From Poseidonia sp. (GTDB lineage Archaea > Thermoplasmatota > Poseidoniia > Poseidoniales > Poseidoniaceae): a stretch of DNA of 64,000 nt. The stretch lies in NCBI RefSeq assembly GCF_029250625.1, contig NZ_JAQXEX010000080.1. The stretch is one strand, 5' to 3'. This document shows positions 801 through 47,102 of this stretch, in pieces. A program made the translations under genes and the position numbers. The notes beneath the pieces are model-generated. The model was not told the DNA's origin, did not search any database, and saw nothing but the letters and a program-made list of their open reading frames with translations. Numbering within the stretch: the first letter of the stretch is position 1; each line of letters starts with the position of its first letter.

Positions 801-2648
801 TCAAGACTCGGATTCTTCAGTCTCACTTTCATCAACCAAGTCATAAATTGAATCTTCTGACTTAGATGCCTCATCCTTAGATTCGTTCTCTGGTTCAGGT
901 TCAGAAATTCCCTCGGCCTCTTCTTCAAGTTCTTCTTCCTCTTCCACTTCCTCAGCAAGTTCAGGGATTTCCTCGTACGATTTTTCCGATGTTTGTTTAC
1001 GGACTGCGAGTGCGACCAGCATGAATGCGATGACAACTACAATGTAGATGATGTACGGAGTTTCTGAGACTTCGTCTGCATATACCCAGTTCACTTCATC
1101 CGATGATGTTCCGTTCATATCCGCAACCATGTCTCCAATTTCAGTGAACGTTACAGGGAGGAATGCTTTGCAGTTGAGTGCTTGCATTCCTTCATCATAC
1201 ATGTACCAAACAATCGGGATGTCCTTTGATTCCCCTGCTGCGACAGTTGCAATGAGTGTGGAAGGTTGAGTCTCTGCATCGTTCCCGTTCACATAGCACC
1301 GGAAGTTTGCAGTGGTGCCAACATCACCCGTGTTGCTGATGGTGACCATTGCCCCAATGCTTCGATTGACGGTTGCTGTGTTGGATTCGGGTTCAATGGA
1401 TGACACTTCGAGATAAGGCAACGGGAGTTCAATGGTACCGTATGCGGTTGTTGGAGCATCTACTGTTGTGGAGTAAGAGCCCCATGAACTGGAGGAGCCG
1501 ATGGACAATGTGATGGTCGCGCTTTCTTGTTGTACGATTCCGTTTCCATCCATCCATTCCACAATTCTCCTGTGTTCGGTAGTGGGGCCTTCTGCTACGA
1601 GAACAACTCTCCCCGTCGAATCGGTGAGGTCGTTCCAATTTGATTCCCCGTAGCCCAAATCGGTGATGTCCAGACTACCGTTGGGAATGTTGGTTTGAAT
1701 CACACGCTCCGAAAGCAGTCGTATCCAGCCGTCGGTTGAGCCCCCTGTTCCCTGTGAATTGACGTAGGTAATGGATGCACTGTCGTGGAGAATGATATCT
1801 TCGTCAGTACGTGATCCGGTGATGGCCGTGTCGGAAACCGTCACTGCAGCAGTTGTTGATGCTGAAATTGGTGCACTTCCTAACAGTGTTGAACCTTCAA
1901 TGTTGCAGAGCCCATCACAGGTGATGTTTGCTCCGTTGACTTGGCTTGCGATGATTGAGAGGCTTCCGTGGGCAACGATGTCGTATCCCGATTGGAACCA
2001 ATACATCGGAGCGTTGCTGGTGTTTGTGATCTCAGAAGCGGTTTGCGTGATGATGGTTCCACCACCGTAAATGGCCTTGGCCCACAACAAGTAAGTCGGC
2101 GTGAAATAGTATGTGTCGAATGAAATCACGAAGTTGTCACCCGAAAAGTTAGCATCAAACTCAATGATGGTGGTGCCGCTTGCTTGCATGGATGTGGATG
2201 CATTGACCGTTGTTTCTCCAAGGGTGATGTTAAAGAGCGTATTTGCTGGTATTGAATGGTCAAATTTCAACTGTATTACGCCTTCTTGGCCAATGTTTCC
2301 GAAGTTGAGGGATACGGTAGCAAGAAAGTCATTGACCCGAATTCCTGAATTGAGGTCGTCGCTTAGCAATGCTCCGTTGGTGACGATCAAATTACCGCCT
2401 TCTTCTACCGTGATGGACGAGTCAGTCCCCATGGTGATGTTGGCGCTCACCGTAAGGGTGGATCCGTTGGGAACGGTTACGTGACCGTTCATGCTCCCGT
2501 CTTCGGTCCAATTTTCATTGGTTGAACTCGTAACATCCTCGCCAGACGTCGGTGGTGCCGCAGACGTCAAGGGTACTCCCAAAAGGAGCAGCACGAGAAG
2601 GATTGCAGTGGGGCGGAATGGAGTTCGCATAATGCGTTCACGGGACAT
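801..2648 (-). CDS. type I membrane-anchored surface protein with a poly-acidic cytoplasmic tail
   Basis: ATG at 2648. N-terminal signal peptide (RPTAILLVLLLLGVPLTSAAPP), an Asn/Thr/Ser-rich ectodomain with many N-X-S/T sequons, a C-proximal TM (PYIIYIVVVIAFMLVALAV) and a 66-aa Glu/Asp/Ser tail. Confidence 0.75.
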   Translation of the reverse strand: MSRERIMRTPFRPTAILLVLLLLGVPLTSAAPPTSGEDVTSSTNENWTEDGSMNGHVTVPNGSTLTVSANITMGTDSSITVEEGGNLIVTNGALLSDDLNSGIRVNDFLATVSLNFGNIGQEGVIQLKFDHSIPANTLFNITLGETTVNASTSMQASGTTIIEFDANFSGDNFVISFDTYYFTPTYLLWAKAIYGGGTIITQTASEITNTSNAPMYWFQSGYDIVAHGSLSIIASQVNGANITCDGLCNIEGSTLLGSAPISASTTAAVTVSDTAITGSRTDEDIILHDSASITYVNSQGTGGSTDGWIRLLSERVIQTNIPNGSLDITDLGYGESNWNDLTDSTGRVVLVAEGPTTEHRRIVEWMDGNGIVQQESATITLSIGSSSSWGSYSTTVDAPTTAYGTIELPLPYLEVSSIEPESNTATVNRSIGAMVTISNTGDVGTTANFRCYVNGNDAETQPSTLIATVAAGESKDIPIVWYMYDEGMQALNCKAFLPVTFTEIGDMVADMNGTSSDEVNWVYADEVSETPYIIYIVVVIAFMLVALAVRKQTSEKSYEEIPELAEEVEEEEELEEEAEGISEPEPENESKDEASKSEDSIYDLVDESETEESES

Positions 2649-2738
2649 GAGTGAATAATACTTCGGCTTTGTTGGAGATTCTCCAAGGATATGTCTGCCG
2701 CGAAGAACTTATGCGTCGGCTTCCAACCAGTAAGAACA

Positions 2739-4022
2739 ATGGATGGAGCAACTGTTGTCGTTATTGGCAGTGGCGGGCGTGAGCATGCTCTGTGCTTGGC
2801 GTTGAGTCAATCGGCTCATGTTGCGTCAATCCATTGTCTTCCAGGGAACGCAGGGACCTCGCTTGTGGCTACAAACCATCAATTGGAAGACACTTCAACT
2901 TCAGGAGTGGTGTCGTACTGCTCATCGATTGGTGCATCATTGGTCGTCGTAGGTCCTGAAGCACCGTTGTGCGATGGCCTAGCAGACTTGTGCGCTGATG
3001 CAGGACTTGCCTGTTTTGGCCCAGTGGCGGCGTTGGCTCACCTTGAAGGGTCAAAGCTGCATGCAAAATTGGCCATGAAAGAAGCTGGAGTGCCAACGGC
3101 GGACTACGTTGAATTGAATGCTGAATCCGATGTAGAGGCTGCACTGGACCGGTACGGTTCCGACCCTTGGGTCATCAAAAGAGACGTTTTGGCCGGAGGG
3201 AAAGGTGTGGTTGTAACGTCCGACAGAGACGAAGCCCGTCAGTTCATTTCAGCCTCGATTGAAACGGATGGTCTGGTTCTTCTCGAAGCCTTCCTCCCCG
3301 GGGAAGAGGCGAGTATGTTGGTGGTCATGGATGGCGTTTCTTTTGTCACATTACCTGCAAGTCAAGATCACAAAAGAGCATTTGATGGTGATTTGGGGCC
3401 CAATACGGGCGGTATGGGCGCTTACTGTCCCGCTCCCGTCGTAACCTCGGGTGTTTACGATAAGGTCCTTGACCGAATTGTCAAGCCAATGCATGAGCAC
3501 CTCTCCAACAAATCAACGCCATATCGTGGAGTGTTGTTCATCGGACTTATGATTGACGAGCACAATGACCCTTATGTTGTTGAGTTCAATGTTCGTTTTG
3601 GAGACCCAGAATGCCAGGTAACTCTGCCGCTTGTTTCCAGCGATGTCTTCGATTTGTTGTACGGGGCGGCTACTGACACCCTGGACCCATCACTGGTGAC
3701 TTTTGATTCATCATCTGCTCTCACCGTAGTTTTGGCTTCAGAAGGTTACCCTGCCCGTCCGATCAAAGGAAGAATCATCCAAGGTCTTGAGGATGCATTG
3801 AATCAACAATCGTACCGGAAAAGTTGGGTGAATGTTGCCGGTGTTGTTGAAGGGGACATGGGGACATTAATTTCAAGCGGGGGTCGTGTGGTTTCTTGTA
3901 CCGCAATGGCGGCCTCTCTCGAGGATGCTCAAGCGTCGGCGTACAAATTACTCAACAGCCTTGAACTGAAAGGCAGTCACTTCCGAACGGACATTGGTTT
4001 CCGAGCCATCTCCGGCGAATAA
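2739..4022 (+). CDS. purD: phosphoribosylamine--glycine ligase (GAR synthetase)
   Basis: MDGATVVVIGSGGREHAL start typical of PurD. ATP-grasp body (VIKRDVLAGGKGVVV, PNTGGMGAYCPAP, EFNVRFGDPE). The ATG at 2739 is preferred over the 2691 start in the track. Confidence 0.93.
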   Translation: MDGATVVVIGSGGREHALCLALSQSAHVASIHCLPGNAGTSLVATNHQLEDTSTSGVVSYCSSIGASLVVVGPEAPLCDGLADLCADAGLACFGPVAALAHLEGSKLHAKLAMKEAGVPTADYVELNAESDVEAALDRYGSDPWVIKRDVLAGGKGVVVTSDRDEARQFISASIETDGLVLLEAFLPGEEASMLVVMDGVSFVTLPASQDHKRAFDGDLGPNTGGMGAYCPAPVVTSGVYDKVLDRIVKPMHEHLSNKSTPYRGVLFIGLMIDEHNDPYVVEFNVRFGDPECQVTLPLVSSDVFDLLYGAATDTLDPSLVTFDSSSALTVVLASEGYPARPIKGRIIQGLEDALNQQSYRKSWVNVAGVVEGDMGTLISSGGRVVSCTAMAASLEDAQASAYKLLNSLELKGSHFRTDIGFRAISGE

Positions 4023-4135
4023 TTTCATCACTGCATCAAAGCCATGAAATACGGGTAAAAAGGGTACTGATACGCATAAGGGACTGTATCTAAACCCGTC
4101 ACCTTCAAGAGGGGTTCACAAGTGGGCAAAATGCA

Positions 4136-4151
4136 TCAGCCTCGAGGCTGA
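4136..4151. promoter_or_regulatory. 16-nt perfect palindrome TCAGCCTCGAGGCTGA 23 nt upstream of the aglB-fusion ATG
   Basis: Read directly and self-complementary over all 16 nt. Could be an operator or a 5'-UTR hairpin; function unknown. Confidence 0.2.
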
Positions 4152-4173
4152 GCCTTGAATAGAGGGATACAAG

Positions 4174-7100
4174 ATGAATGATGAAAAAGATATGAAGGCA
4201 GCACAGCCTAATATTGCCTTGGGTTGGCTCTTTGCCCCATTGGCTGTATTGCTGGCTCTTGCTGCTATGAAAATCGTGGGAATTTCCTACGAAATGGACG
4301 TAAATAACCTGATGCCGATGATTGTCGTCGCCATCGCAGGCATGTTGGCCATTGTGCCTCGTGCAATTCTCGTTCCACGTGGAATTTCATCTTCGCTTCT
4401 CTCCCTCGGAGTGTTGGTGGTATCCTTCGTCGGCGCAGAAGTGCTTTACATGTTCACTGAAGTTGGCGCATTAGCCGCTTTCATGTTCGCATTCGTTCTA
4501 TTGTTTGGGGCCAACCTCGACATGCGTGGACGCCATGAATGGAACACCATGCTCATGTTTTCTTCGATCGGTGTTTGGCTTGCTCTGGCAGCCGCTGGTG
4601 ACTATCTTTCCGGACTTGAGACCACATTCACCAATGCAGAAGGACAGGTGCAGTCAACGCTTAGCGTCGGCCGTCAAGCAACAGCCTACGTTTTCTTCGC
4701 ATACTGGACCATGTTCACTGCTCTTGGATTGCTTGTTGGTTTGATTGCACGAGGTATTGCAAACCCAGCAGGACAGGAAGGATGGTTTTCCTTTGTCAGC
4801 GAAAAAGGCGGATGGAACGCATCCTCTGCTCCGCTGATTTCCGCTCTTGCCGTTTGGGTCCTTGCTTTCGCAGGTTCTCTTTGGCACTTCAACTCGGTTG
4901 ACCTTATTGACCAGTTCCGCCTTACAACCGAAGAAGGCTACCATGGCTATGTTGGCTATTGGGCAGCATTCCTTACCGGTATTGTCGCTTTGATGGTGGC
5001 TGGAATGGTCGCTGAGCGATGGTTTACACGAGCAATGCTCACCGGGTCAATGTGGACTCTTTACCAGGTTTCCTCATGGTACGAAGACAAGATTTGGTAC
5101 ACCGAGAACCTCGCAGGCACTTGGGGTGCGCTGCTTTGGCTTGGAATCACGTTCTTTATCTGTGTCGCAATTTACTACATCTCGATTCACGAAAAATTCG
5201 GAGGATGGGCCAACCGTGGGGAACACGAACCGTCCAATGCTCGTCTTTTCATGAGCGAACACGGTACTGGATTGATGATTGCTCTTGCCTTTATCATCGG
5301 GCTCACCATTCGTATCCAATGGTATGTTGTCCCCTCCATGAACGCCTTTGGAACCGGTAACTGGGACATGACCGGAGGTTCTGACCCTTGGTACATGAAG
5401 CGTGTTGTGGATTACATCCTAGCCAACAACGCTCACCTCGTTTTCGATGCCGACCGTTTCTACCCCGCCGGTGGAATCAATCCTCGTCCACCGCTCTTCT
5501 CGTGGTCAATGGCTGTTGGAGCAATGCTCCTCGAGCCCTTCCTTGAGAACCCTGAAGATGCAATCTGGTGGAGCATGCTCGGACTTCCTGCAGTTTACGG
5601 AGCCCTGACCATTCTACCCATTGCAGCAACAGCACGGGACCACTTCGGTAAAGGGGCCGCAGTCATCGCAGCGTGGCTCATCGCCTTCATGCCGGCTCAC
5701 GTCACACACTCAACTTGGGCTCTTGCGGACCACGACTCATTCGTTATGCTCTTCATCAGCGTCGGTTTCATGTATTGGCTACGAGCGGTCAAATACGCCG
5801 GAACAGCTCGAATTACAAAAGAAACCTCGGCACACCCGTTGTCCTTTATTCGTGCGTTCCGAGATGTTTTTACTCACCGCCAAGGTGCAATGTCAAATGC
5901 TATTCTCGCAGGTGTTGCCTTTGGTATTGCATCTCTTGGATGGAAAGGGTTCGTCGTTGGACCAGCGATTCTCTTCCTTGCTTATGCGTTGCAAGTTGCA
6001 TTGAACATGTTCCGTCGCCGAGATTCGACTGCATTGAGCGTCATGTTCCTGACCATGCTTTCTGTTATTGCCCTGATGGCTCTACCGTTCTACGGACACC
6101 CACAATTCTCGCTTGTGTTTGATCCAACTGGATTGCAACCCTTCTTGTTCATCTTCGGGTTCACCCTCGCCATTGCGTTTGTCACTACAGGTTACCGTGA
6201 CAAGCCTTGGTTGCTCGTTCTGGGAACCCTCGCAGGCATGGCCACGGCCTTCTTCGTAGTGCTGTTCATCCTCAAGACCTTTGGAATTTCAGACGCATGG
6301 GACGTTCTCTTTACAGGAAGCGGATACTTCACAAAGACCAAGATTTTCGGAACCATTGCCGAAGCAAACGCCCCGAATCGAGCGCAACTCTTTGCCTCCT
6401 TTGGACCGATTACCTTCCTGCTTGCCCTCGTTATGGGCGGCACGTTCCTTTGGAGGGGCCTCCGCCACCGACGCTCAACTGACCTTGTCTTCGGAGTTTG
6501 GCTCTTTGCGGCCACTTTCATGGCTTGGAACGCTGCTCGTTTCATGTTCAACGCTACACCCATTATGGCCATTCTCGGAGCCTGCGGTATCGCATCACTC
6601 TGGAAGTGGGCTAACTGGAGTGGACTCGTCCGCTCTTGGAAGAAATTCGGAATTCGAACACCTGCTGATCGTATTGCAGGAGCTCGCAAAGCAGTTTGGA
6701 GAACGCCCCAATTCTCAGCCATCTTCCTCGTGATGTTGATGCTCTTCAGTCAGCAGATAACATACGGACTTGACTCTGCAATCCCTGGTTCCTCTTCAAG
6801 TGCAGAAGGCGACCTCGACGAACGAATTTATGATATCGTGCCCGACATTCTTCGTTTCGACGGGCTCGGGTTCTCCATCCTTGACAGCACAAGCCACGAT
6901 GGACGCTGGTACTTGGGTAACTTTGGTTCCAGTTTCAATGACGACGGCTGGAACAGAGCATATGAGTGGCTCGCCGGACAGGATACAAACGTTACCTATT
7001 CAGAGCGCCCAGCATTTGTATCATGGTGGGACTACGGTTTCCAAGCACTCACTGCAGGCGAACATCCCTCTGTTTCTGACAACTTCCAATCCGGTATCAC

Positions 7101-10100
7101 TGCAACGGGTAACATGTTGCTTGCCCGTAATCAAGATGACCTAACGGCAATGTTCGTCTGGCATCTTTCAGAAGCAGACCGAACCTATGCTTCAGCCTCC
7201 ACGACCGAATCCGGTCCGTTCACAGTTGGATTCCAAAATGTGTTGGATGATTACCTCACAGAAGAACAAATCGAGGATTTTACAACCATGCAAACAAGTA
7301 CTGAGAGTATGATTGACTTCATTCAAGACCGCTCCTTTAGCGTGATCAAGACCAACCGAGGCATTGTGATGGCCGAAGGTTACCACCATGATGGTGGGAT
7401 CTTTGACACCTCTACCCCGGTCATTCGTTTGTACAGTGATGGCGTCCAGATTCCATGCGAATCAACCATTGCCGATGTTTGCATCGGCGACGATTGGGAT
7501 AAAGAGAACCACATGAGTGCTGCGGAAAGTGAATTCCAAAACAGTATTCGAAGCGGTGAAGACACCGTTGTGGATTCAACTCACACAATCTTTGGCGATT
7601 ACTGGTACACAGAGGATTTGATCGATGAACATGAAAGTGTTTCAACCGCCATGCACCGGCAGAATGCCCGTCTCGCAATGGTAACTCAACTTCTCACAGC
7701 GGCTTTCGCAGCAAACGATGACGCAACCGTACATGACATGTACGCTGACATCATTGACCTTGGTGGAGATGAAGGTTACTACACTGTACAGGATTACAAC
7801 GGTGCCCCCGGCGAAACAATCACCCGTGACCACGAGATTCGTTACTTTGCAGTGGACAACCGCCTCTACCCCCGAGCAGGTCGCTATACCGCTGACTACA
7901 ACTACAACGGCGGTCAACCAATGGGTATTTTCGGAGCACCAACGATCCTCTCAGGACAAGATACTGGCACCTACATGAATGAAGTGTACGAGACCATCCG
8001 TGGAGATTTCAGCGATGAAATGACACGAGAGGAAGTTGACCTCGCCATGCAAAAGGATTTCTTGAACCAACAATCTGGTGCAGACATTGAACCGCTGCAG
8101 ATTGAGGATGTCCGAGTTGACCACATGCCTGCTTTCTTTGACACCATGGTCGCACGAACCTACGTTGGTTACGGCGCCTCAACCTTGGGACTTGATACCG
8201 CTTCGTCAAATCCACAACCGTCTCAACACTTTATGGTTTCAGGAACTCCAGGTAGCGTTCTATCTTCGGCTCTACCGCTCCCCGGTGCAATGATGAATCA
8301 TTATGTTATTGCGAACTGGTACGATGATGAAAGCGAAGCTGGAATCACCGATTCCAACACCAAGGTTAAGATTCTCAAATACTACCCTGGAAGCGAAATC
8401 ACTGGTCAAGTGACCATGAGCGATACAGGTGAAGGAATCCCTGGAATCCGCCTCCTTGTTGAGCGTGACGCTTTCTCCGGTGAAGGCTCTGAAGATTTGG
8501 ACACCGATACCTATTGGGTGCCTATTGGATTTGTTGATGCAGATGAAAACGGTAACTACGAGTATACCGTTCCAGCCGGTCGAATCCGTGTCTCCGCATT
8601 TGCAGGAGAATACGACCCAGTGGCAGCACGTGACTCAATCCGAGACGGTTCTTACGCACAAGTTAACAACAACAATTTGGACATCACCAGCGAAACCAAC
8701 GGTGAACGAGACGTTTACGCCATCACTGCGCTTCTTGGTCAAGTTGCTAACATGACCTGGCTTGGCGATTCAGTCATGAACGTCACAGCTGCAATGGCCA
8801 ACCGACAAGTTCCTGCTGATGCACCCCTTGATGTTGCGATCAAGAGCAGCGGTGTTTCTGGAACAGTGAGTTGGACGGGAGACGAAGCTTTCAGCGGAGA
8901 CCCAGTGTCCGAAACAACCTTTGTCCTGCGAAACATTTGGTCAATGACTGACGATTACACTGTCACGACTACAAGCGGTTCAATCACAAGCGAAGAAAGC
9001 CGTATACTCCAAGGAACTGGTGAAGCCACCTTTACCGAAAACGGAACATTCCAAAGTACGGGTATGGCTGTTGCTAAGAACTTCATTGGTACCTTTACTC
9101 GAGAACTGGGTGACAGCCGTATGTTCTTTGCCAACGGTACATGGGACGGTGCTGGTACAATCAAGGCTACATGGATTGAATCTGTGAACTCGACTGATTG
9201 TGAATTTGACAACGATTCAATGCCGATTATGCCTGACAATTACACGGTTTGTGCCATCGGCATTGAAGACGGACTTACGAACTATCGTATTGAGGGTGTA
9301 GTCAATGCATCTGGAACCTTTACTTCGGATGGAGTCACAACCCTGACTCGAACCTATGGTGATTACGACTCCGGCAGCGGTGATACCTTCGAAGGTGCTG
9401 GATTCTACGAAGGAATCGGTACACTAAACGGTACTGGATTGTTCATCGGAGCAGGTTCCTTCTCAGGGCCAATGGTGGAACCAGGTTCGTTCTACAGAAC
9501 CGGTCTCTTGCCCGGCACATACAACATGGTAGCCATGCTTGAAAACAACAAATCCGTTCTTTTGCCTGACCCGGTTGTCATTGGAGTCGCTCCGACCTAC
9601 GACCTTCAGATGACCATGCCTGGAGCCATCTTTGACGGTGTGCTTCAAGACATGACCGGAGAACTCCTACCCAACCTCACCATTGAATTTGTTGATGTTG
9701 ACCTTGGAGAAGATTACATCACTGAAATCAGCACCGATGAGAACGCAAGTTTCAGTCATGGCCCCATTCCTAAGGGTGATTACTACTACCGCGTCGACGT
9801 TGACAACGACGGATGGTATGATTTGAACGAAACAGCAACCGTCGGTGATGATACAACCAACATCACGATTGCATTCGGTGTCCCAGAGACCGTTGACGTT
9901 ACGCTTCACCTCGTATCTCCAATCGACCCAACTACCCAGGAGCCTCTCTTCAACGTCTCAAACCGTTTGATTACCTTTGACAACATTGCAGGAATTCTTG
10001 ACCCTGTTAACGTCACTTCTGACGAAGACGGTCGTGTTTATGCCGAATTGTTGTTTGGAACTTACGATATTCGAGACGATGTGAACAGCGACTATGTCCT

Positions 10101-13100
10101 CTTTGACCAGGTTGAAATTGAACCCGGTTCCGATGACATTGATCGAAACATTACCTACGCTGAATCCGTTTACATCAACGGTAGCCTGCGCGCTTACCCC
10201 GGATCCGCTGAAGACTACAACCTGTGGCTTGAATCCCCTGATGAAGACAAGGTCGAAACGAGTGATGCTGCCTCTGCAGTAACAGTTCTCTTCCAAAGCG
10301 GTGTACTTTCGTTCACATCAGTGACCAACACGACTGGACACTATTCAGTTCGAGTACCTGCTGGATTTGAGTACCACATGACGACGACTTCATCGTTCAC
10401 CAACCTTGGTGGAGGACAACTCATCGATGTCGCTACTGCCGATGACTTGGACATGGGTATCATGTATCTTGAACCTACGACTCAAGTGAGCGGAATCATC
10501 TATCTCTACGATAATGAGACCCGATGGAGTAGCACAATTCCTCGCTGGGTTGCTCCAGAAATCACGGCAACAAATCAAGATGGACTCCAATGGACAACCA
10601 CTACCAACGAAGTTGGCGAGTTTGACATCGGTCTATTGGACGGTACATGGACTCTGAGCGTAGATGATGATCTTCTCAACATTGAGGCCATCACCGACCT
10701 CGTGATTAACGGAAGTCGCGACGGTTCACAAGTTGCTGAAGAAATGTCAATCATGGAACTGTTTGCACATCCTGCTGCGGTAGATGTCTCGTTTGAACTC
10801 TTCCTCAACTCTGCTGAGGACGGCACATTCGAAAACGGAACAAAGGTCTCACCCGAGTTCCGCTTGGTGCCTCTTGATGAATCAAGGGATGATCTTTACA
10901 TCACAGCGGACAACTACACCAGCAACGGTGTGGCAAATGTTTCGCTAACACCTGGAACCTACACGCTGACGTTCAACCGAACGACAGCAGATTCAGAAAA
11001 CGCAACAGATTACGACTTGATTGGTGAAATTATCTTTGACGAGATTTACATTGGTCTTGACGGTCCTGAAGAGGCCCTTCCGGTGCCGCTGAAGGAAACC
11101 TACCGTGTCACAGGTACCCTGTTGAATTCTACTGATGATGGTTTGATGAATGCCTTCTTGCTTTACAACGAGGCAGAAGACCGCTGGTTCTCAGATATTG
11201 GTTCCGATGAAAATGGAACGTTTGCAGCCTATGTCCCATCAGGAGACTGGTTGATGATTGTCGCTCCATTCATGAACGGAGAATCGACCGAGACCCTGCG
11301 TGCTACTCTAAGCGTAGGTGAGGACTCAAACACACGCCTCAACCAATCCTTCAAGACCGTTCCAGCAGTGAACGTTCTCGTCCAACTCAAGGAGTTGTTG
11401 ACGCTGAACAACCTTGCTGACATGAACCTCGTAGCAGTAAGCGGCGATGGATTGGGCAACGTGACCTTTGAAAAGACTGATGTTGACGGTAATGCCTCTG
11501 AAATGCTCATGCCGGGCAGTTGGAGTTTCTATCTGAACAAATCTTCTGGTCAACAAACCTGGTACCTGAACACATCAGCGACTCCATTTGACATGACCGA
11601 AGCAGTCAACAATTCGTTAACACTTGATCCAGTCTTTGCTGAACTCGAAGTAGAGATTGGCGGTAAGGTGTACTGGGACCTTGACAACAGCAGCTCTCCA
11701 TCCTTTGGAGAAGGCCTTGGCGGATTCAACGTCACGGTAGTTGGTACCAACAACACCGATGTCAACACCAACGTTACAACCGATGAAGACGGTGTTTGGA
11801 GGCTCTTTGTACCAATTCAGGATGTTTACAATGTTACGGTCGAAAAGGAAGGATTTGATACAGTGTATTACATGAACGGAAACGAATCCGGCTTCCCTGT
11901 TTACAACAGCACACAATCGACTGACATCGAAGTTGTTGCTGGTATGGTCGAAGTTTCTGGTTCAGTTACGGACCAAGTTGACTCCAATCGTTTGGTAGGT
12001 GCAACCATTGAACTTCATCCGAAATCTGGTGTTGAACGAGATTCAGTTGTTGTCTTGGGCACGATGGTCAATGACACACTGGAATGGTCAACCATGGTTC
12101 AACCAGGAGAATGGATTGTCGTCGTTACCGATGCCAACCCATCACCAAACGGTGGCGGTGTCACAGTTGGTCTCCTTGATGCAAGTGTTTCGAACGGCGG
12201 TAACGTCTCGTTGGAGATGGCTCTTGGAGGAAACCTCGTGCTCAACACCGAATGGTATCCGCTCGGCGCAACAACACCGTTGCATGCTGGTTCGGACAAC
12301 GCTCAAGCAGGAGTTATGGATTCAGATGCAGAACTTGAAATCACCTTTGATGGAATGTCTTGGATGGTGCCTCTACCAGAAACCGGTACGCTCAATCTGC
12401 TTATGCCGGAAGGTAGCATTGTCTTTGACAGTACCTTCATGACAACACAACATTCCAGCAACTTGGAGATGGAATACTTCGGTGGTCAAAGCATGACCGT
12501 GGCTTCTGATTCTACCATCACAGCCACTCTTGAATACAACCGACGTGTCAACTCCAACTTGGACCTTGAATTCAACAGTGTTGAAGGAGCGACTCTTGTG
12601 GACGCTACTGATGTTGAAATTGGAGCAGTTGTGTCAACGGCGAACAACAGCGCATATGATCAGTTCACCTACTCTGTTGATGTAACCTACAACGGAACCG
12701 AGACCCTTGACCTGTTCACAGTAACTGCAGAAATGGGCTTGGCTCAGGATTCTGACCTATGGACCGTTGAACTTTACAACGAAACAAGCAAGGAATGGGA
12801 AACATCAACCTTGATGACGCTTGGAATCGGAAATGCCACCGGTGCAGACGCTGTACTAAACGGTAGCATCAGTGTCCGTGTCACGCTACCATCCGTTGAT
12901 GATGCCTGGCATCTTGATGACGGACATCGAATCTCACTTCGACTTGAAACCGAGTTGGGAGAGGCCAGTCAGATCACCGTTAAGGCAGTCGTTCCTACCG
13001 ATTATTCGTATGAGATTACCGGAGCAACAGAGGTCATCGGAATTTCTCCACTGGTCTCTCGTGAATTCAGCTTTGACATTACCAATGATGGTAACGGGCG

Positions 13101-13797
13101 AGACACCTTCACCATAGAACTCCTCGAGAGTGGAATCCCTGAGGGATGGTCGGTAACGCCTATGCAATCAACGCTCACCCTTGCTAAGGGTGAGACTCGT
13201 GTTCAGCCGTTCACGGTCTTCGCACCAGCAGACTTTAGCGAAGGTGATGGCTTTGACCTCAAGGTCTACATCGATAACCTTGGCCAAGTATCTGAGGAAG
13301 TTGATGTCACCATCCAGTATGCTCAAATCAAGCTGTATACTGACCAAGGAAGTATTGCTACTGCATCAGATAACATCGCTGGTGAAGCCGGCAATGTAAA
13401 GATCCCTGTGTCCAACAGCGGTTTGCTTGATGCAACCTCTGTCATCGTCTACTTGTCGCAGACAGGGGATGCCGTAGAACGACAACAGACCATTTCAGTT
13501 CCTGCTGGCAAAACTGTGAATGCAACGTTTGATAACATCACCAATCCACAGGGTGACCACCGGTTTGATGTACGAATTGAGGTTGCTGGAGAAGAGGCAA
13601 ACAATGTTGAATCCATACTCCATGATGGAAAGGTCGCCGAAAACGGGGCCTTTGACTTCCAACTTCCTTACTATCCGGCACCTTCAGCTGACACGGGTAA
13701 TCTCTGGATAACCCTGGCAGTAGTTGCTCTCGGACTCCTCGTTGCGTACGGCGGTGTCAAGACAGCTCGCAGTGGTCGCTCCGGTTCAAAGTTCTGA
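4174..13797 (+). CDS. aglB: giant AglB/STT3-family oligosaccharyltransferase fusion (extra N-terminal TM domain + STT3 core + >2,000-aa extracellular domain array + C-terminal TM anchor)
   Basis: One uninterrupted 9,624-nt ORF. FVSWWDYGFQALTAGEHPSVSDNFQSG (WWDYG at nt 7024-7038) sits after a long multi-pass membrane region. Downstream are repeated carboxypeptidase-regulatory-like modules (e.g. ITGQVTMSDTGEGIPGIRLLVERD...GNYEYTVPAGRIRVSA) and CARDB/NPCBM-assoc-like modules (FSFDITNDGNGRDTFTIELLESGIPEGWSV). Terminal TM is LWITLAVVALGLLVAYGGV followed by a basic tail. Confidence 0.85.
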   Translation: MNDEKDMKAAQPNIALGWLFAPLAVLLALAAMKIVGISYEMDVNNLMPMIVVAIAGMLAIVPRAILVPRGISSSLLSLGVLVVSFVGAEVLYMFTEVGALAAFMFAFVLLFGANLDMRGRHEWNTMLMFSSIGVWLALAAAGDYLSGLETTFTNAEGQVQSTLSVGRQATAYVFFAYWTMFTALGLLVGLIARGIANPAGQEGWFSFVSEKGGWNASSAPLISALAVWVLAFAGSLWHFNSVDLIDQFRLTTEEGYHGYVGYWAAFLTGIVALMVAGMVAERWFTRAMLTGSMWTLYQVSSWYEDKIWYTENLAGTWGALLWLGITFFICVAIYYISIHEKFGGWANRGEHEPSNARLFMSEHGTGLMIALAFIIGLTIRIQWYVVPSMNAFGTGNWDMTGGSDPWYMKRVVDYILANNAHLVFDADRFYPAGGINPRPPLFSWSMAVGAMLLEPFLENPEDAIWWSMLGLPAVYGALTILPIAATARDHFGKGAAVIAAWLIAFMPAHVTHSTWALADHDSFVMLFISVGFMYWLRAVKYAGTARITKETSAHPLSFIRAFRDVFTHRQGAMSNAILAGVAFGIASLGWKGFVVGPAILFLAYALQVALNMFRRRDSTALSVMFLTMLSVIALMALPFYGHPQFSLVFDPTGLQPFLFIFGFTLAIAFVTTGYRDKPWLLVLGTLAGMATAFFVVLFILKTFGISDAWDVLFTGSGYFTKTKIFGTIAEANAPNRAQLFASFGPITFLLALVMGGTFLWRGLRHRRSTDLVFGVWLFAATFMAWNAARFMFNATPIMAILGACGIASLWKWANWSGLVRSWKKFGIRTPADRIAGARKAVWRTPQFSAIFLVMLMLFSQQITYGLDSAIPGSSSSAEGDLDERIYDIVPDILRFDGLGFSILDSTSHDGRWYLGNFGSSFNDDGWNRAYEWLAGQDTNVTYSERPAFVSWWDYGFQALTAGEHPSVSDNFQSGITATGNMLLARNQDDLTAMFVWHLSEADRTYASASTTESGPFTVGFQNVLDDYLTEEQIEDFTTMQTSTESMIDFIQDRSFSVIKTNRGIVMAEGYHHDGGIFDTSTPVIRLYSDGVQIPCESTIADVCIGDDWDKENHMSAAESEFQNSIRSGEDTVVDSTHTIFGDYWYTEDLIDEHESVSTAMHRQNARLAMVTQLLTAAFAANDDATVHDMYADIIDLGGDEGYYTVQDYNGAPGETITRDHEIRYFAVDNRLYPRAGRYTADYNYNGGQPMGIFGAPTILSGQDTGTYMNEVYETIRGDFSDEMTREEVDLAMQKDFLNQQSGADIEPLQIEDVRVDHMPAFFDTMVARTYVGYGASTLGLDTASSNPQPSQHFMVSGTPGSVLSSALPLPGAMMNHYVIANWYDDESEAGITDSNTKVKILKYYPGSEITGQVTMSDTGEGIPGIRLLVERDAFSGEGSEDLDTDTYWVPIGFVDADENGNYEYTVPAGRIRVSAFAGEYDPVAARDSIRDGSYAQVNNNNLDITSETNGERDVYAITALLGQVANMTWLGDSVMNVTAAMANRQVPADAPLDVAIKSSGVSGTVSWTGDEAFSGDPVSETTFVLRNIWSMTDDYTVTTTSGSITSEESRILQGTGEATFTENGTFQSTGMAVAKNFIGTFTRELGDSRMFFANGTWDGAGTIKATWIESVNSTDCEFDNDSMPIMPDNYTVCAIGIEDGLTNYRIEGVVNASGTFTSDGVTTLTRTYGDYDSGSGDTFEGAGFYEGIGTLNGTGLFIGAGSFSGPMVEPGSFYRTGLLPGTYNMVAMLENNKSVLLPDPVVIGVAPTYDLQMTMPGAIFDGVLQDMTGELLPNLTIEFVDVDLGEDYITEISTDENASFSHGPIPKGDYYYRVDVDNDGWYDLNETATVGDDTTNITIAFGVPETVDVTLHLVSPIDPTTQEPLFNVSNRLITFDNIAGILDPVNVTSDEDGRVYAELLFGTYDIRDDVNSDYVLFDQVEIEPGSDDIDRNITYAESVYINGSLRAYPGSAEDYNLWLESPDEDKVETSDAASAVTVLFQSGVLSFTSVTNTTGHYSVRVPAGFEYHMTTTSSFTNLGGGQLIDVATADDLDMGIMYLEPTTQVSGIIYLYDNETRWSSTIPRWVAPEITATNQDGLQWTTTTNEVGEFDIGLLDGTWTLSVDDDLLNIEAITDLVINGSRDGSQVAEEMSIMELFAHPAAVDVSFELFLNSAEDGTFENGTKVSPEFRLVPLDESRDDLYITADNYTSNGVANVSLTPGTYTLTFNRTTADSENATDYDLIGEIIFDEIYIGLDGPEEALPVPLKETYRVTGTLLNSTDDGLMNAFLLYNEAEDRWFSDIGSDENGTFAAYVPSGDWLMIVAPFMNGESTETLRATLSVGEDSNTRLNQSFKTVPAVNVLVQLKELLTLNNLADMNLVAVSGDGLGNVTFEKTDVDGNASEMLMPGSWSFYLNKSSGQQTWYLNTSATPFDMTEAVNNSLTLDPVFAELEVEIGGKVYWDLDNSSSPSFGEGLGGFNVTVVGTNNTDVNTNVTTDEDGVWRLFVPIQDVYNVTVEKEGFDTVYYMNGNESGFPVYNSTQSTDIEVVAGMVEVSGSVTDQVDSNRLVGATIELHPKSGVERDSVVVLGTMVNDTLEWSTMVQPGEWIVVVTDANPSPNGGGVTVGLLDASVSNGGNVSLEMALGGNLVLNTEWYPLGATTPLHAGSDNAQAGVMDSDAELEITFDGMSWMVPLPETGTLNLLMPEGSIVFDSTFMTTQHSSNLEMEYFGGQSMTVASDSTITATLEYNRRVNSNLDLEFNSVEGATLVDATDVEIGAVVSTANNSAYDQFTYSVDVTYNGTETLDLFTVTAEMGLAQDSDLWTVELYNETSKEWETSTLMTLGIGNATGADAVLNGSISVRVTLPSVDDAWHLDDGHRISLRLETELGEASQITVKAVVPTDYSYEITGATEVIGISPLVSREFSFDITNDGNGRDTFTIELLESGIPEGWSVTPMQSTLTLAKGETRVQPFTVFAPADFSEGDGFDLKVYIDNLGQVSEEVDVTIQYAQIKLYTDQGSIATASDNIAGEAGNVKIPVSNSGLLDATSVIVYLSQTGDAVERQQTISVPAGKTVNATFDNITNPQGDHRFDVRIEVAGEEANNVESILHDGKVAENGAFDFQLPYYPAPSADTGNLWITLAVVALGLLVAYGGVKTARSGRSGSKF

Positions 13798-13863
13798 TTT
13801 CAGGGCAATTTGGCCCCTTGTCAAACAAGGGTTCTTGAAGCAAACGATGTGATAGTCACCACT

Positions 13864-15078
13864 ATGGAAGGTCTTGACCATGTTGAGTATCTTCCAGAGC
13901 CCTACGACAGGAGCATTGTTTCTGCCGTGGACCCCGCTGTTGTCGGTCATCAAGATGGCTGGCGTTCCGAAGTCATGGGTTGGGCTCCAATGGTTGCACA
14001 GCCAGTGGTCCGAGCGAGAAGAAGGACATTCACAGTGACAAACATGCTCGGGTTTGCGGTCTTTGTATCCATTAGCATGCTGTTATGGCAGAATGACCTG
14101 CTTATTGTTGACATTCCTCTACCTGATTCGGAATGGGCCTTTGAGGCAACAGGTGTACGTGGGCTCAATGAGGACGGATTGAATGGAGATGGAATCCGTC
14201 TTTGTATGGTTGATACAGGAATTGACAATCAGCATGAGGCCTTTGCTGGAAAAGATATCTTGTTCCACGACCTGATTGGAGACTCATCTGCCCCACGGGA
14301 ATACGGTGCAGTTGCCCACGGCACCTTGATGGCCGGGATCTTGATTTCCGGAAGCCATCAAGTCGGCATTGCTCAAAACGTGACGTTTGCGATGGTTGCA
14401 GCACTCCAAGACGACGGCTCGGGACAAAACAGTGGATTGGAGTCCGATGTTGGAGATGCCATTCGATGGTGTCAATTCCAATTCGAAGCGGACATCATCT
14501 CTCTGTCGCTGGGAGGTACTCCGAGCATGGAAGGGCAACGGGAAGGCGATTCAGTATCGGCAACACGTCAAGCCACCGACAGCGGAATCTTTGTCGTGGC
14601 TGCAGCCGGTAATGACGGAGGGCCAGATGATGACGGCGATGTGGCTGCACCGGGGAACGTACCTAGAGCTATTTCGGTAGGTGCCACCACTCGGGCCGGG
14701 GAAGTGTGGGCCAATTCTTCAATCGGTAGCGATAGTGGGGACGAAATCGTACGTCAACACCCTCACATGAAACCCGAGATTGTAGCTCCTGGACATCGTA
14801 TTATCAGCACCGGTGAAGATAACCTTTGGTACACAAGCAGTGGTACTTCGGATTCGACCGTATTCGTTGCTGGTGCACTTGCATTGTTGTTGGAAGCCCA
14901 CCCCCATCTTCGCCCCAACGGACAAAGTGATGGTTCTTGTGTAGACCTCGTCAAAACTGCGTTGATGAATTCTGCCCAATCCATCGGTCAAGGTGAAAAT
15001 CACCATCCTTACGCCGGTTACGGGCAAGTTGATGCAAAAGCTTGGATCAACGAAATTGACCCCAATGTTGCCTGCTGA
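13864..15078 (+). CDS. membrane-anchored subtilisin-like serine protease (peptidase S8)
   Basis: Catalytic triad contexts: CMVDTGIDNQHEAF (Asp), AHGTLMAGIL (His), GTSDSTVFVAGALALL (Ser). N-proximal TM is FAVFVSISMLLW. First ATG at 13864 (the track start at 13810 is TTG). Begins 12-66 nt after the aglB-fusion stop. Confidence 0.85.
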   Translation: MEGLDHVEYLPEPYDRSIVSAVDPAVVGHQDGWRSEVMGWAPMVAQPVVRARRRTFTVTNMLGFAVFVSISMLLWQNDLLIVDIPLPDSEWAFEATGVRGLNEDGLNGDGIRLCMVDTGIDNQHEAFAGKDILFHDLIGDSSAPREYGAVAHGTLMAGILISGSHQVGIAQNVTFAMVAALQDDGSGQNSGLESDVGDAIRWCQFQFEADIISLSLGGTPSMEGQREGDSVSATRQATDSGIFVVAAAGNDGGPDDDGDVAAPGNVPRAISVGATTRAGEVWANSSIGSDSGDEIVRQHPHMKPEIVAPGHRIISTGEDNLWYTSSGTSDSTVFVAGALALLLEAHPHLRPNGQSDGSCVDLVKTALMNSAQSIGQGENHHPYAGYGQVDAKAWINEIDPNVAC

Positions 15079-15147
15079 GAACGAATATTCCTCTCAAATG
15101 GCCGATATAGGCCGTTGGAAAGGAGCGGAAATGTGCGGTATTCGGCC

Positions 15148-15152
15148 TTTTT
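15148..15152 (+). terminator. possible archaeal oligo-T terminator after the protease gene
   Basis: T5 tract in GGCCTTTTTCCGG about 70 nt after the 15078 stop, inside the only ~200-nt gap of this gene string. Weak evidence. Confidence 0.2.
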
Positions 15153-15279
15153 CCGGAAGAAACCTTCCTGTATCAGGGGGCTAAATTGATATTGTAAGTT
15201 CATATTGATACATCTGGGGCGACAACCATGGAGCAGTATTATATTCGGCCCGTTCATGGGGAGAATAGGTGCATCCTAC

Positions 15280-18200
15280 ATGTCACAAAATTTGAAAGCC
15301 AAAAGTTTCTCAATCGTAACACTGTTTTTGCTCTCGGCTTTGCTGGGCCTTGTCGCCCTGCCTGAGGCCTCTGCAGTCAATGAAACAACCAAAGGGACCG
15401 TTACCGGTGTTGAGACTTGGTCCGGCACCATGACCCTCCAGGGCGATGTTGAAGTTGCAGAGGGTGCAAAACTCATTGTCAATGCGGGTACAACGGTCAA
15501 TATTCCTTACGGCAAGTTCATTGACGTTCGGGGGGCTATCTGTATCGGTGATTCCGCATGTGGTGCAAGTGCTGGTTCTTCCTCAAGTCAAGCGCGTTTC
15601 ATATGGACGAAGCCTACAGCACAAGGATACACAGAAACTGGACGTTGCTTGAGCAATCAATCGCAATTGCTCAACAATCCAGATGCCGCCTGTGGTTCTG
15701 GTATGATCATTCGTGATACCATCGACCAATCGTTGACCTCGATCAATTATGCACACTTTGAGAACGGATACGGATACCCTACCGTAGTTGGAGTCGGATC
15801 ACAGACCCAGTCAATCAAATACGGAGTTTTGGTCTTTGATGGCTCGAGCACTACCGCTCGTGGATTGTCCTTCAAGGACACCAACACTTCCAACGTGTTA
15901 GCGGTGGATTTTGCAGCTCCAACGATTACAGAATCTGAGTTTTCTAACGGTATTGATGAACAGACGTTCAAAGCCTCTGCCGTGCGAGCCTATGGGGCAG
16001 GTGCAGGAATCCTTTCCACTTTTACCTTGGAAAGTTCGGTGTTCACTGGTGATGATGCAGATTGCGGTAACCAAGGCGGTGGCCTATCAGTCCTCGTTGT
16101 CGAGGAAAGCTATGTTGACATGGATGACCTCGAAATCAAGGACTCGTCTTACGGAGTTCTTATGGTGCGAAGTTCAGGTTCCTTGACCAATTCTGAAATC
16201 ACAGTCAAGTGCAATGCAGTTGATACGACCTCATTGAAAACTACCGGGACGATCAAGCACAGGCTCCTCGTTAACAACAACATACTCACGACCACCGAAG
16301 GCGCCGGACTTACAGCCTACGAGGGTGCAAATGTCTATGCAGAAGGAAATACCATCTCCGGGGCAAGCGAATCATCTGGCGTCGGAATTAGTTCCTCAAA
16401 AATAGAGATGCATGGGAATACCATTGGACCAATCGGCGGTTACAATGGACTGTGGATTTATGGAATGGATTCGGATGTTATCGCTGAAAACAACACCATT
16501 AAAGAAACGACCAAAGAAGCCGTTAACATTGGTGAATACCATCACGAAGACTTCGGTCAAAGCAAGGATTACGGAGCAAAGCGTCTTTACTTCGCCAACA
16601 ACAATATTCAAAACAACTCCGGTACTTGTGAGTCTGTGATTTACGGTGGAGAATTTGCTTGCCCTGCAATCCACGTCTTCATGGCTTCTGCTACCATCAT
16701 TGATAACACGATTTCTGGCAATACGGGTGACATCATTCGGGCAACTGGGAGCATTGTGAATGTCCAAGGAAATACCGGTGACTCAGCATTTGGCTTTGCG
16801 GGCAACATCTCGGTTCATGACGACCCGACAACAAACATGAAGTACGGCTCAATTGCGTACTTCTCTGATAATACTTGGACCGGTGTATCTCAAGTCTACA
16901 ACGTTACAGAATCTCGTATGACCGTTCAAAGCGAACAGATCCCATCTCCAGGCAACGGTGAACTCTACCCCATTTCCTTGAGCTGGATGAATGCAGAATG
17001 TCCGTACGTGCAAAACGAATGCCTGACGTTATCAGATGCATCCACCATGCCTCCTGCACAAATGCCTCTCGCTGTTGAGTTGGTTGATAACGCCACTGTG
17101 TTTTCCTATGCGGACCTCCAAAACTTTGATTCCTCGATGATTCACGTGCAAAACCAAAACACAGCATGGGGCTCGCAAGTTCGCGAGGGTGAACTCGTTC
17201 GATACCAAGTTAAGGCTAAGAACAGCAATGTCGCTGGTGCAACTGTCATCATCAAGGATGCAACAGGTTTGCCGTTGTATGAGTTGACCACGGACGCATT
17301 CGGATTCACTCAGCAAGTTTCCCTTCCTTCTGATTTCCTTCTTGACCGCAACTGGAATCACAAAGTCGGTGATAAGAACGCTATCATCCCTGGCTCAGGA
17401 AATCCTCCAATCACAATGGATGAAGATTCCTGTGCGGATGGAATCGATAACGATGGAGATACACTCATCGATGATGACGATGCTGACTGCATTAACGGAA
17501 GGGAAATGCCGTTTTACACGGTTGAAGCCTTCAAGTTTGGTAGTGGTACCAAAGACTTCTCTTATGTTCTCTCCGGACCCATTGATGACGTCATCAACCT
17601 TGACAATCTACGTCCAAGTGTTAGCGTAACCCAGCAAGACGGTGTTTCTTTTGCAACCTCGGTTGAAATTACCGGACAAGCGTGGGACGGGGTCAAGTGG
17701 CCTTATGCAAACGACAACACTGCCAGCCAGAAGCAGTTTGGTATGATCACCGCTGTCGAAGTCCAACCACCGGGTACCAACGATTGGTATTCTGCAGTTG
17801 ATACCTCTGGTGCAAACGGCATGATCACAATGGAGAACCATCCGTTCAAAGACTGGTCGTTTGTTTGGGATATGTCTGCACATGCTGGTGGTGAGGGAGA
17901 TGTGACGTTCCGTGTTCGCTCGTATGACGGACTCGATTATTCACCTGTTTCCGTTCGCCAGTACAAACTGAACCTCGTGCCTCCAACCATTGTTGTTGAT
18001 GTTCCAAACACGGGAAGCACTCACACGAATGGAAAGGTTTTGTTCCAAGGAACTGCAGCCGACCCCTATGCAGGGACATACGGTAGCGATGTTCAGAAGA
18101 TTTGGTTCCACATCACCAGTCCGGAAAACGATTACACTTCCCACTATTTCGAAGAGGGCTCAACAAGCTGGTCTCACGAGTGGGACTTCAGTGAACTTCC

Positions 18201-19698: not shown

Positions 19699-19720
19699 GT
19701 ATTGAACCGAGTTGAATCCG

Positions 19721-22246: not shown

Positions 22247-22723
22247 TCACTGAACTGCTTGCGGACGATCCAGTGTGACTTTAGTGGTCCCGTTTTCATG
22301 AACCACCCATACCAGTTGGGCCCCAGCAAGTGGGATTTCTCCGCTATGTTCTCCACTGCCTGTTCCCGATAACGACACGGTCATGTCAAGAGGTCCACCC
22401 TTGTCAATTAATTTCAGTGAAGTGTCGCTTAGACGTAGCCAAAACATCGATTCGTCTGCTTCTGATGGCCTCCATGCGACCGATTCTGCATAGCTAACAT
22501 TCCCAATTCGGCTCGCCTCATCTGCCCGTTCTACTGCGGCGGCGAGGTCGTTTAGATTCGCTTCTACGGCTTCTTCATTCCATCGAAGCCGGGTATTTGT
22601 TTCAATATCCCAAGCCCATACGCTGAAAATTGTCATCAACAATACACCGAGGAGGAACGTGAACACGTATCCAAGTTCGGTCGCAGCGGCATGGGTGTCT
22701 CGTGATAATCGGACTTGTCTCAT
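22247..22723 (-). CDS. small archaeal pilin-like protein (N-terminal hydrophobic class III-like signal)
   Basis: N-terminus MRQVRLSRDTHAAATELGYVFTFLLGVLLMTIFSVWAW, a charged lead plus one hydrophobic helix. Its ATG overlaps the upstream stop (ATGA at 22720-22723). It is the weakest pilin call of the trio. Confidence 0.5.
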   Translation of the reverse strand: MRQVRLSRDTHAAATELGYVFTFLLGVLLMTIFSVWAWDIETNTRLRWNEEAVEANLNDLAAAVERADEASRIGNVSYAESVAWRPSEADESMFWLRLSDTSLKLIDKGGPLDMTVSLSGTGSGEHSGEIPLAGAQLVWVVHENGTTKVTLDRPQAVQ

Positions 22724-32834: not shown

Positions 32835-32904
32835 TCCATTTGGATGAATTTTGGTGTGACTCCAAACCGCATGGTTAAAATTCTAAGTCGTGTGTCTACG
32901 AAGT

Positions 32905-41493: not shown

Positions 41494-41582
41494 ATGCGGG
41501 CGAGTGGTTTGACCTTCAAGAAGATGCTGTGGGCGTCAATCCAAAGGCGAAGTGTGAAAATCTAAGCAGGATTCCACCGGTC

Positions 41583-47017: not shown

Positions 47018-47102
47018 GCCTTTGGGGCTGCGGCGAAGTCTTTCAAATTCACTGCTAAATGTTGTTCAAACCCTTGAAGAAGCAAAGGCGGCACGGCGTA
47101 CC

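Follow-up and report, generated by a model that had tools for sequence, protein, structure and literature searches.

The stretch of DNA analysed here (64,000 nucleotides of contig NZ_JAQXEX010000080.1, assembly GCF_029250625.1, from Poseidonia sp.; "the window" in what follows) carries at positions 4174 to 13797 a single gene for a protein of 3,207 amino acids (aa). In this protein an STT3/AglB-type core is joined to an N-terminal membrane module and to a very long ectodomain that ends in a second membrane anchor. AglB is the archaeal oligosaccharyltransferase (OST), the signature enzyme of archaeal N-glycosylation. We consider it likely that the gene encodes a giant AglB of a kind that is widespread in Thermoplasmatota, in the form that it takes in Poseidoniales (Marine Group II), and that it combines a competent enzyme with a doubly anchored arm. 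The gene stands between purD and a gene for an S8 subtilase. Its parts are listed below; the invariance of motifs was scored over an alignment of 34 orthologues, and the protein used for comparison is the AglB of A. fulgidus (AfAglB).

4174–13797 (+): giant AglB/STT3 gene, complete; 3,207 aa, ATG start, stop codon at 13795–13797 (open reading frame list and translation)
4174–5223 (+): N-terminal module, residues 1 to about 350; ten predicted transmembrane (TM) helices; in Poseidoniales-type proteins only
5266–6783 (+): STT3/AglB TM domain, residues ~365–870 (Pfam, TIGR04154, AfAglB alignment, Foldseek)
5374–5403 (+): external loop 1 (EL1) motif GGSD404PWYMKR, the first DXD-type motif with the predicted metal-binding Asp; invariant in 34/34; aligned to GGND47PWYYYR of AfAglB
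5728–5736 (+): EL2, second DXD motif, D519-H520-D521; invariant in 34/34; aligned to D161-H-H163 of AfAglB
6352–6363 (+): EL5, TIXE motif T727-I-A-E730, the same as TIAE of AfAglB; T727, A729 and E730 invariant in 34/34
7024–7038 (+): WWDYG, residues 951–955; invariant in 34/34; aligned to WWDYG of AfAglB
7171–7773 (+): variable insertion in the extracellular enzyme domain, residues ~1000–1200; column identity 0.40–0.50 versus 0.7–0.9 in the flanks
7774–8523 (+): second conserved extracellular block, HEIRYFAxDxRLYPRAGRY...QPMGIFGAPTILSGQD, residues ~1201–1450; column identity 0.6–0.82
8524–13701 (+): ectodomain arm, residues ~1451–3176; acidic, beta-rich, with 50 N-X-S/T sequons
11707–11871 (+): best CarboxypepD_reg domain (a transthyretin-like beta-sandwich) in the arm, residues 2512–2566; PF13620, 46.1 bits versus a cut-off of 32.3
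13357–13590 (+): CARDB Ig-like domain, residues 3062–3139; PF07705, E 1.1e-8
13702–13794 (+): C-terminal TM helix (residues 3177–3195) and basic tail KTARSGRSGSKF (residues 3196–3207); hydropathy peak 2.19

An intact gene with an oligosaccharyltransferase core

A first-pass annotation of the window had described a single uninterrupted open reading frame (ORF) of 9,624 nt. The ORF list agrees, and translation of the 3,207 codons between 4174 and 13797 meets no internal stop. String checks place GTGLMIALAFIIGLTIR at residues 364–380, GGSDPWYMKR at residues 401–410 and LWITLAVVALGLLVAYGGV followed by KTARSGRSGSKF at residues 3177–3207 (nt 13702–13794), so that every motif the annotation quoted lies where it had put it. 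We then have to ask whether such a long frame is real. A search of 5.8 billion proteins with the full protein gave 485 matches. Of the best 120 of these, almost all have a length of 3,125–3,227 aa and align over the whole query (100%), with an identity of 47–93%. More than 100 clusters of full-length orthologues come from independent assemblies (ENA, JGI, NCBI, Tara and Logan). The giant ORF is also found in 80 of the 80 best loci in GTDB, on contigs of up to 660 kb, and it is full length in all 12 Poseidoniales loci that we inspected. Because more than 100 orthologues of nearly equal length align at full coverage, and because the neighbourhood is kept in 12 of 12 loci, the ORF is real, far beyond chance.

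The annotation had read residues ~365–1000 as a canonical STT3/AglB core, and independent lines of evidence confirm that the core is genuine. The STT3 profile search that it proposed gives a match to Pfam PF02516 at residues 395–716, with 48 bits against a cut-off of 24.5; there is also a weak AglB_core-like match at residues 938–981. The top sequence match in the PDB is A. fulgidus AglB-L (3WAJ/5GMY, E 3e-11), and the further matches (3VGP, 3VU0) are C-terminal domains of AglB. We also predicted the structure of residues 250–1449 with AlphaFold2 (AF2) from 34 orthologues, and used the model, which is of low confidence, for a fold search alone and not for active-site geometry. In that search with Foldseek the 15 best matches were all catalytic subunits of OSTs, led by 7E9S (E 1.6e-9) and followed by 3WAK, STT3A/B, yeast Stt3 and PglB. 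The 64-kb window contains no second STT3.

The motifs expected of an active OST are intact where they can be aligned. The roles of D47 and of the AfAglB active-site motifs are taken from PMC8342417. The corresponding positions in EL1, EL2 and WWDYG do not vary among the 34 orthologues. In the TIXE motif only position 728 varies, which is Ile in the window protein and Val in most orthologues. After WWDYG the sequence SVSDNFQSG aligns to ANPFQAG of AfAglB; neither the DGGK nor the DNXTZNX[T/S] consensus is found literally there.

How far does the enzyme extend? Conservation along the protein peaks at residues 250–1000 and again at 1200–1450, and we therefore place the end of the enzyme part near residue 1450 and not near 1000, where the annotation had ended it. 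The insertion between the two peaks (residues ~1000–1200) is modelled as a helix/strand domain with a predicted local distance difference test score (pLDDT) of 70–89. The block at ~1201–1450 recurs in more distant relatives (class 2, introduced below) as IRYFAVDSRLFPF...GIFYAP. By sequence, it is probably the rest of the catalytic globular domain and the likely place for a motif of the DK/MI type. From homology and motif conservation we infer that residues ~365–1450 would form a catalytically competent oligosaccharyltransferase of the STT3 type.

The core is preceded by about 350 residues that belong to a different module. Segments that look like TM helices cluster at residues 1–340 and 368–866 in a hydropathy scan, with one isolated segment at 3177–3195. 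An AF2 model of residues 1–366, built from 59 orthologues, contains ten long helices (pLDDT 78.6, predicted TM-score 0.81). Both results uphold the earlier claim of about 360 aa of extra TM helices before the core. If the ten helices start with the N-terminus inside, the loops assumed to be inside hold 12 Lys and Arg residues versus 2 in those outside, a positive-inside bias that agrees with this orientation. The first TM helix of STT3 would then begin on the cytoplasmic side, which is its orientation in canonical OSTs, and the position of the arm would be outside the cell. Four invariant charged residues (E122, R193, E281 and R286) lie in or next to loops that the topology model places in the cytoplasm.

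Searches with the N-terminal module returned no Pfam match, no PDB sequence match beyond one at chance level (E 0.027) and no structural neighbour in the PDB (best Foldseek E 0.45, TM-score at most 0.27). We considered that the module might be a duplicated STT3 TM domain and rejected this on the basis of a profile-profile comparison; the same kind of comparison between its two halves found no relationship. The model is reasonably confident, and the fold that it shows has no known structural relative. The class-2 relatives lack the module, and their alignment begins at residue 350. Judging from these alignments, the module alone is specific to the Poseidoniales type.

On the other side of the enzyme, the annotation had seen more than 2,000 aa of beta-rich modules, and domain searches agree with it. 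CarboxypepD_reg matches lie near residues 1823–1911, 2131–2165 and 2512–2566 (Pfam, sub-scans). Towards the C-terminus a NEW3/FixG_C-like domain at ~2965–3035 (weak matches to PF10633 and PF11614) stands before the CARDB domain. A single-sequence search of the PDB with the arm found no match, and the Poseidoniales profile finds only OSTs there. The arm is rich in sequons, with 50 observed versus 19.4 expected from composition, a 2.6-fold excess. In an alignment of 121 orthologues, about 20 of them are kept in 88% or more. The globular region of the enzyme (residues 870–1450) has 1 versus 3.7 expected. Heavy N-glycosylation of the arm is probable, and its simplest source would be the catalytic site of the protein itself or those of neighbouring copies.

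The protein closes with the second membrane anchor that the annotation had proposed. All 127 full-length orthologues have a C-terminal TM helix, as do about 95% of 194 class-2 proteins.

Taken as a whole, the protein would probably work as follows. The core would take a lipid-linked glycan and, on the outer side of the membrane, move it to the Asn of N-X-S/T sites in secreted proteins. The extracellular enzyme domain runs unbroken into a tandem series of beta-sandwich modules (~1,750 aa) and then into the single TM helix. With the inferred topology, an ectodomain that is tethered at both ends has to lie on the cell surface as a loop or arch, and this loop would itself be heavily glycosylated. 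To an architecture shared with their relatives, Poseidoniales would have added the N-terminal module of ten TM helices. We speculate that this module is coupled to the supply of the lipid-linked donor. As for the arm, it may be a structural, glycan-coated element or spacer of the envelope, or a scaffold that keeps the enzyme in the surface layer. We think that a second catalytic function is less likely than such a structural or scaffolding role.

Relatives and gene neighbourhood

The gene does not stand alone. In a scan of GTDB with one genome per species, 433 species genomes carry a relative, the best being that of Candidatus Poseidonia alphae UBA255 (95% identity). We looked at the best 80 of the 433 loci by label, and nearly all are labelled Poseidoniales or generic euryarchaeote. 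These matches place the window in a Poseidonia genome of Marine Group IIa. The giant protein is near-universal among the Poseidoniales species genomes in GTDB.

A search with residues 360–1449 against 1.84 billion cluster representatives gave 719 matches. Beyond the Poseidoniales type of ~3,150–3,230 aa, these include a large second class of proteins (class 2), which are 2,000–2,800 aa long and 29–37% identical in the core. Their STT3 core starts near residue 20–150. The source names are Thermoplasmata archaeon, Thermoplasmatota archaeon, Methanomassiliicoccales archaeon and Methanomassiliicoccus sp.; the relatives in Methanomassiliicoccales, some of which bear the genus label Methanomassiliicoccus, come from metagenome-assembled genomes. 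Class 2 shares the motif set (the EL1 Asp, DHD in EL2, TIAE and WWDYG are invariant there too), the CarboxypepD_reg and CARDB modules, and the C-terminal TM helix with a basic tail. A profile-profile alignment is collinear from residues 350–3204 of the window protein to 13–2448 of the class-2 profile, which represents proteins of 2,100–2,800 aa (E 2e-208, ~23% identity). It follows that the combination of STT3, arm and anchor predates the order Poseidoniales and goes back to an ancestor of much of Thermoplasmatota.

Some of the class-2 giants have extra hydrophobic helices of their own. In one of 2,747 aa (P0182), a long run of such helices occupies residues ~500–760, after the final TM helix of STT3 and before the WWDYG domain. 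Together with the Poseidoniales module, this implies that membrane add-ons arose more than once and at different positions. Two sequences in our searches bear bacterial labels: L006 (NZEQ01000036.1; Verrucomicrobiales bacterium) and P0316 (WP_455391720.1; [Eubacterium] cellulosolvens). Both labels probably reflect mis-binning or contamination.

The gene has kept its neighbours. In 12 of 12 Poseidoniales loci (L001, L002, L008, L013, L023, L036, L040, L044, L057, L063, L071 and L078) the gene order is the same, even where identity between the giant proteins falls to 46%. In the window (801–19698) this order is a gene for a secreted 615-aa protein (−), purD, the giant STT3 gene, the S8 subtilase and a 1,497-aa beta-helix protein. 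The two genes that follow the giant one are these.

13810–15078 (+): S8 subtilase with an N-terminal signal-anchor helix; PF00082, E 1e-36; TM-like MLGFAVFVSISMLLW after RARRR; adjacent in 12/12 loci
15205–19698 (+): secreted 1,497-aa beta-helix protein with a hydrophobic segment near the C-terminus; PF13229; kept in 12/12 loci

Since the signal-anchor helix of the subtilase is at its N-terminus, its catalytic domain should face outward, beside the arm. Among class-2 loci, a Methanomassiliicoccales contig (L081; JACIVX010000001.1) has purD and a giant Beta_helix/NosD protein within 5 kb of a giant STT3 of 2,172 aa. That STT3 gene is followed at once by two others, at 16519–17771 of the locus. 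The first encodes a separate 256-aa CARDB protein with a signal peptide, a C-terminal TM helix and a basic tail, the second a 107-aa thioredoxin (WCGPC) with a weak Pfam match to OST3_OST6. The neighbourhood of a second class-2 locus is different, and an S8 neighbour was not seen beside either of the two class-2 genes examined.

The rest of the window contains further genes of interest. At 19712–22246 a regulator-like gene (HTH, AAA and TPR) adjoins three genes in a row at 22247–26024 (−), whose products (158, 744 and 357 aa) have N-termini like those of archaeal type IV pilins; their matches to Pilin_N and DUF7289 are weak and below cut-off. Large secreted proteins without a family match are encoded at 27081–38286 (+), 44801–47017 (−) and 55853–58348 (−). 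All are enriched in sequons (1,917 aa, 29 versus 15.6 expected; 1,798 aa, 18 versus 12.8; 738 aa, 14 versus 4.5; 831 aa, 17 versus 8.1), which fits an organism with active N-glycosylation. The longest ORFs at 44801–47017 (−) and 46833–48875 (+) lie head to head (divergently) and share 185 nt, and the true start of at least one of the two is probably downstream of its first listed start codon. A family 2 glycosyltransferase at 41481–42620 (+), 28 kb from the giant AglB gene, is the only other recognised gene of the window that is related to glycosylation. Searches of the window for tRNAs and Rfam families gave no match.

Weighing the alternatives

Several observations weigh against reading the protein as a competent enzyme with a structural arm. 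First, the NCBIfam model TIGR04154, which describes an archaeosortase A-associated AglB subfamily, aligns over residues 368–988 with 166 bits, below its cut-off of 450 bits. By this score the giant protein is akin to the subfamily and not a member of it. Second, the structure prediction that the annotation had suggested for the core retrieves the OST fold from a poor model, with a pLDDT of 53.6 overall and below 50 around WWDYG. Third, the DK/MI motif, which completes the Ser/Thr pocket, was not located by alignment, as the PDB alignments end before it. The conserved block YFAxDxRLYP...QPMGIF at ~1224–1255 is a candidate site, for whose placement the confidence of the model is too low. Fourth, the beta-sandwich repeats of the arm proved too divergent to count: an iterated HMM, and hhalign with the best CarboxypepD_reg unit, recovered the seed copy alone. 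Should these genomes encode a conventional short AglB too, the giant protein could have a specialised role. Finally, domain types, sequon density and double anchoring are all that points to a structural or spacer role of the arm.

One could also argue that the protein is a precursor. After translocation it would be cut, for example by the membrane-anchored S8 protease encoded downstream, into an AglB of normal size and a surface-layer glycoprotein with a C-terminal anchor. The signal-anchored subtilase next to the gene in all 12 Poseidoniales loci makes such a cut conceivable, as do the fall in conservation after residue ~1450 and the fact that the arm has an anchor of its own. The separate anchored CARDB protein after the Methanomassiliicoccales giant gene also shows that such modules can stand alone. 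We identified no cleavage motif, however, and the protease was not seen beside either of the class-2 genes that we examined. Moreover, the fusion has been held in one ORF across a profile identity of ~23%, which argues that a covalent link or co-translation matters. We regard cleavage into two proteins as rather improbable.

We also considered that the STT3 part may be inactive. It would then serve as a membrane anchor or as a platform for lipid-linked glycans, carrying a surface adhesin or envelope protein, and a separate AglB would glycosylate. A TIGR04154 score far under the cut-off and the DK/MI motif that alignment did not find are what one would expect of such a pseudo-enzyme. A second AglB could be encoded elsewhere in the genome, our search having covered the 64-kb window only, and in this window there is no other STT3. 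Yet all metal- and sequon-binding motifs that can be aligned are invariant in the 34 orthologues and in class 2, and no other part of the protein is as well conserved as the core. It is hard to reconcile this with loss of function, and an inactive core seems quite unlikely to us.

A third alternative concerns only the C-terminus, which in the annotation resembled a tripartite sorting signal. If it were a signal of the archaeosortase type, it would be removed and the arm would then be lipid-anchored. A TM helix with a basic cluster at the extreme C-terminus has the right outline, and a terminal [KR]F is kept in 120 of 127 full-length orthologues. The residues that precede the helix (...PAPSADTGNLW) carry neither a PGF nor another signature, however, and no sorting-domain model in NCBIfam matches at E ≤ 0.1. 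A sortase system with a signal of its own would as a rule act on many substrates. In the window, no other large secreted ORF, the sequon-rich ones described above included, ends in a tail of the KTARSGRSGSKF type or in any C-terminal TM helix with a basic tail, and the class-2 tails differ in sequence. The resemblance does not hold up; we read the C-terminus as a plain stop-transfer anchor with a basic tail that would be cytoplasmic, and consider a sorting signal very unlikely.

An artefact, in which mis-assembly or a missed frameshift joined an AglB gene to a surface-protein gene, has only the unusual length in its favour and is ruled out by comparative data: the same ORF of 3,125–3,227 aa in more than 100 clusters from independent sources, its presence in 80 of 80 GTDB loci and at full length in 12 of 12, and the conserved gene order leave it practically no chance, and with it goes the assembly error or internal stop for which the annotation had allowed.

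Known systems and what the protein may mean

The competent, doubly anchored enzyme that we favour can be compared with several known systems. The closest of solved structure is A. fulgidus AglB-L (3WAJ, 3WAK, 5GMY, 7E9S), which has the same series of motifs (G-x-D in EL1, D-H-x in EL2, TIAE, WWDYG and a later xFQxG) and the orientation expected here, with the N-terminus in and the globular domain out. In contrast, its PDB chain has 875 residues and the window protein 3,207. The window protein adds ten TM helices, a variable insertion of ~200 aa after WWDYG, an arm of ~1,750 aa and a second anchor, and the DK motif cannot be aligned in it.

The class-2 giants (for example MFA5772382.1 with 2,449 aa and UCE75266.1 with 2,380 aa) are alike in their collinearity from core to anchor, their motifs, their domain types and their TM helix with a basic tail. 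They differ in lacking the ten-helix module of ~350 aa, in being 400–1,000 aa shorter and in a core identity of 29–37%. Their neighbourhood is shared in part (purD and a giant beta-helix protein, no S8).

The arm can be compared to eukaryotic NOMO, a subunit of the BOS complex (PDB 9C7V). NOMO consists of transthyretin-like Ig domains that are lined up in tandem as a rod, and its C-terminal TM helix anchors it in the membrane of the endoplasmic reticulum. Both proteins have tandem beta-sandwiches of the CarboxypepD_reg type that end in a single TM helix, and the class-2 profile matches human NOMO2 (9C7V) at E 2.7e-24. However, the NOMO1-like Pfam match in the window protein is below cut-off (23.8 versus 27 bits), NOMO is not among the PDB matches of the Poseidoniales profile, and it is not fused to an enzyme. 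As far as sequence comparison goes, the likeness is that of a widespread domain type and not evidence of a common function.

A further parallel is the multi-subunit OST of eukaryotes (STT3, ribophorins, OST48), in which the catalytic STT3 is likewise found amid extra TM helices and large beta-rich outer domains; the STT3A/B among the best fold matches are parts of such complexes. Here the extras are in one polypeptide and have no detectable homology to the accessory subunits, so that the parallel is a functional analogy only.

A bolder proposal is an envelope machine of Thermoplasmatota that is complete in itself. The enzyme would glycosylate its own doubly anchored, NOMO-like arm, which would form the main glycan coat or a spacer of fixed height, and in Poseidoniales the ten-helix module would supply or flip the lipid-linked donor straight to the active site. 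If this were true, donor delivery, transfer and the major acceptor would be coupled in one polypeptide. We think that there is only a slim chance that the protein does all of this. Within the phylum, some members such as Thermoplasma are known to have no S-layer, and Methanomassiliicoccus luminyensis has been reported to have a double membrane.

Other AglBs that have been studied are stand-alone proteins of roughly 600–1,050 aa, and the giant is about three times as large as is usual. A full-text search of the literature found no description of a giant fused AglB, a passing mention in the AglB survey of Nikolayev et al. (2020) being possible, and searches of a 2024 review of archaeal N-glycosylation for fused or multiple AglB gave no result. 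An "oligosaccharyltransferase" is among the transcripts enriched in a genus of Marine Group IIb, the gene not being specified and its size not being remarked on (PMC9723583). Automatic labels in the databases read "STT3 domain-containing", "GT39 family", "carboxypeptidase regulatory-like domain-containing" or "hypothetical". The annotation's remark that it knew of no described enzyme of such build agrees with the literature that we searched. It had also allowed that giant fusions of this kind might turn out to be common and characterised. Common they are, in 433 genomes and in class 2, but not characterised. The giant, doubly anchored AglB with its orphan ten-helix add-on is therefore common yet uncharacterised.

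In the surface ocean Poseidoniales rank among the most abundant archaea, and the protein bears on how the cell envelope of Marine Group II may look. In Thermoplasmatota the transferase appears to be physically built into a large surface structure, which it would itself help to glycosylate. The architecture also bears on how OSTs gain accessory modules, as a one-polypeptide parallel to the multi-subunit OST of eukaryotes. It offers, in addition, a membrane module of ten TM helices, whose fold is predicted with confidence and has no relative among known structures. Should the gene occur in cultured strains of Methanomassiliicoccus, the shared architecture would be open to experiment.

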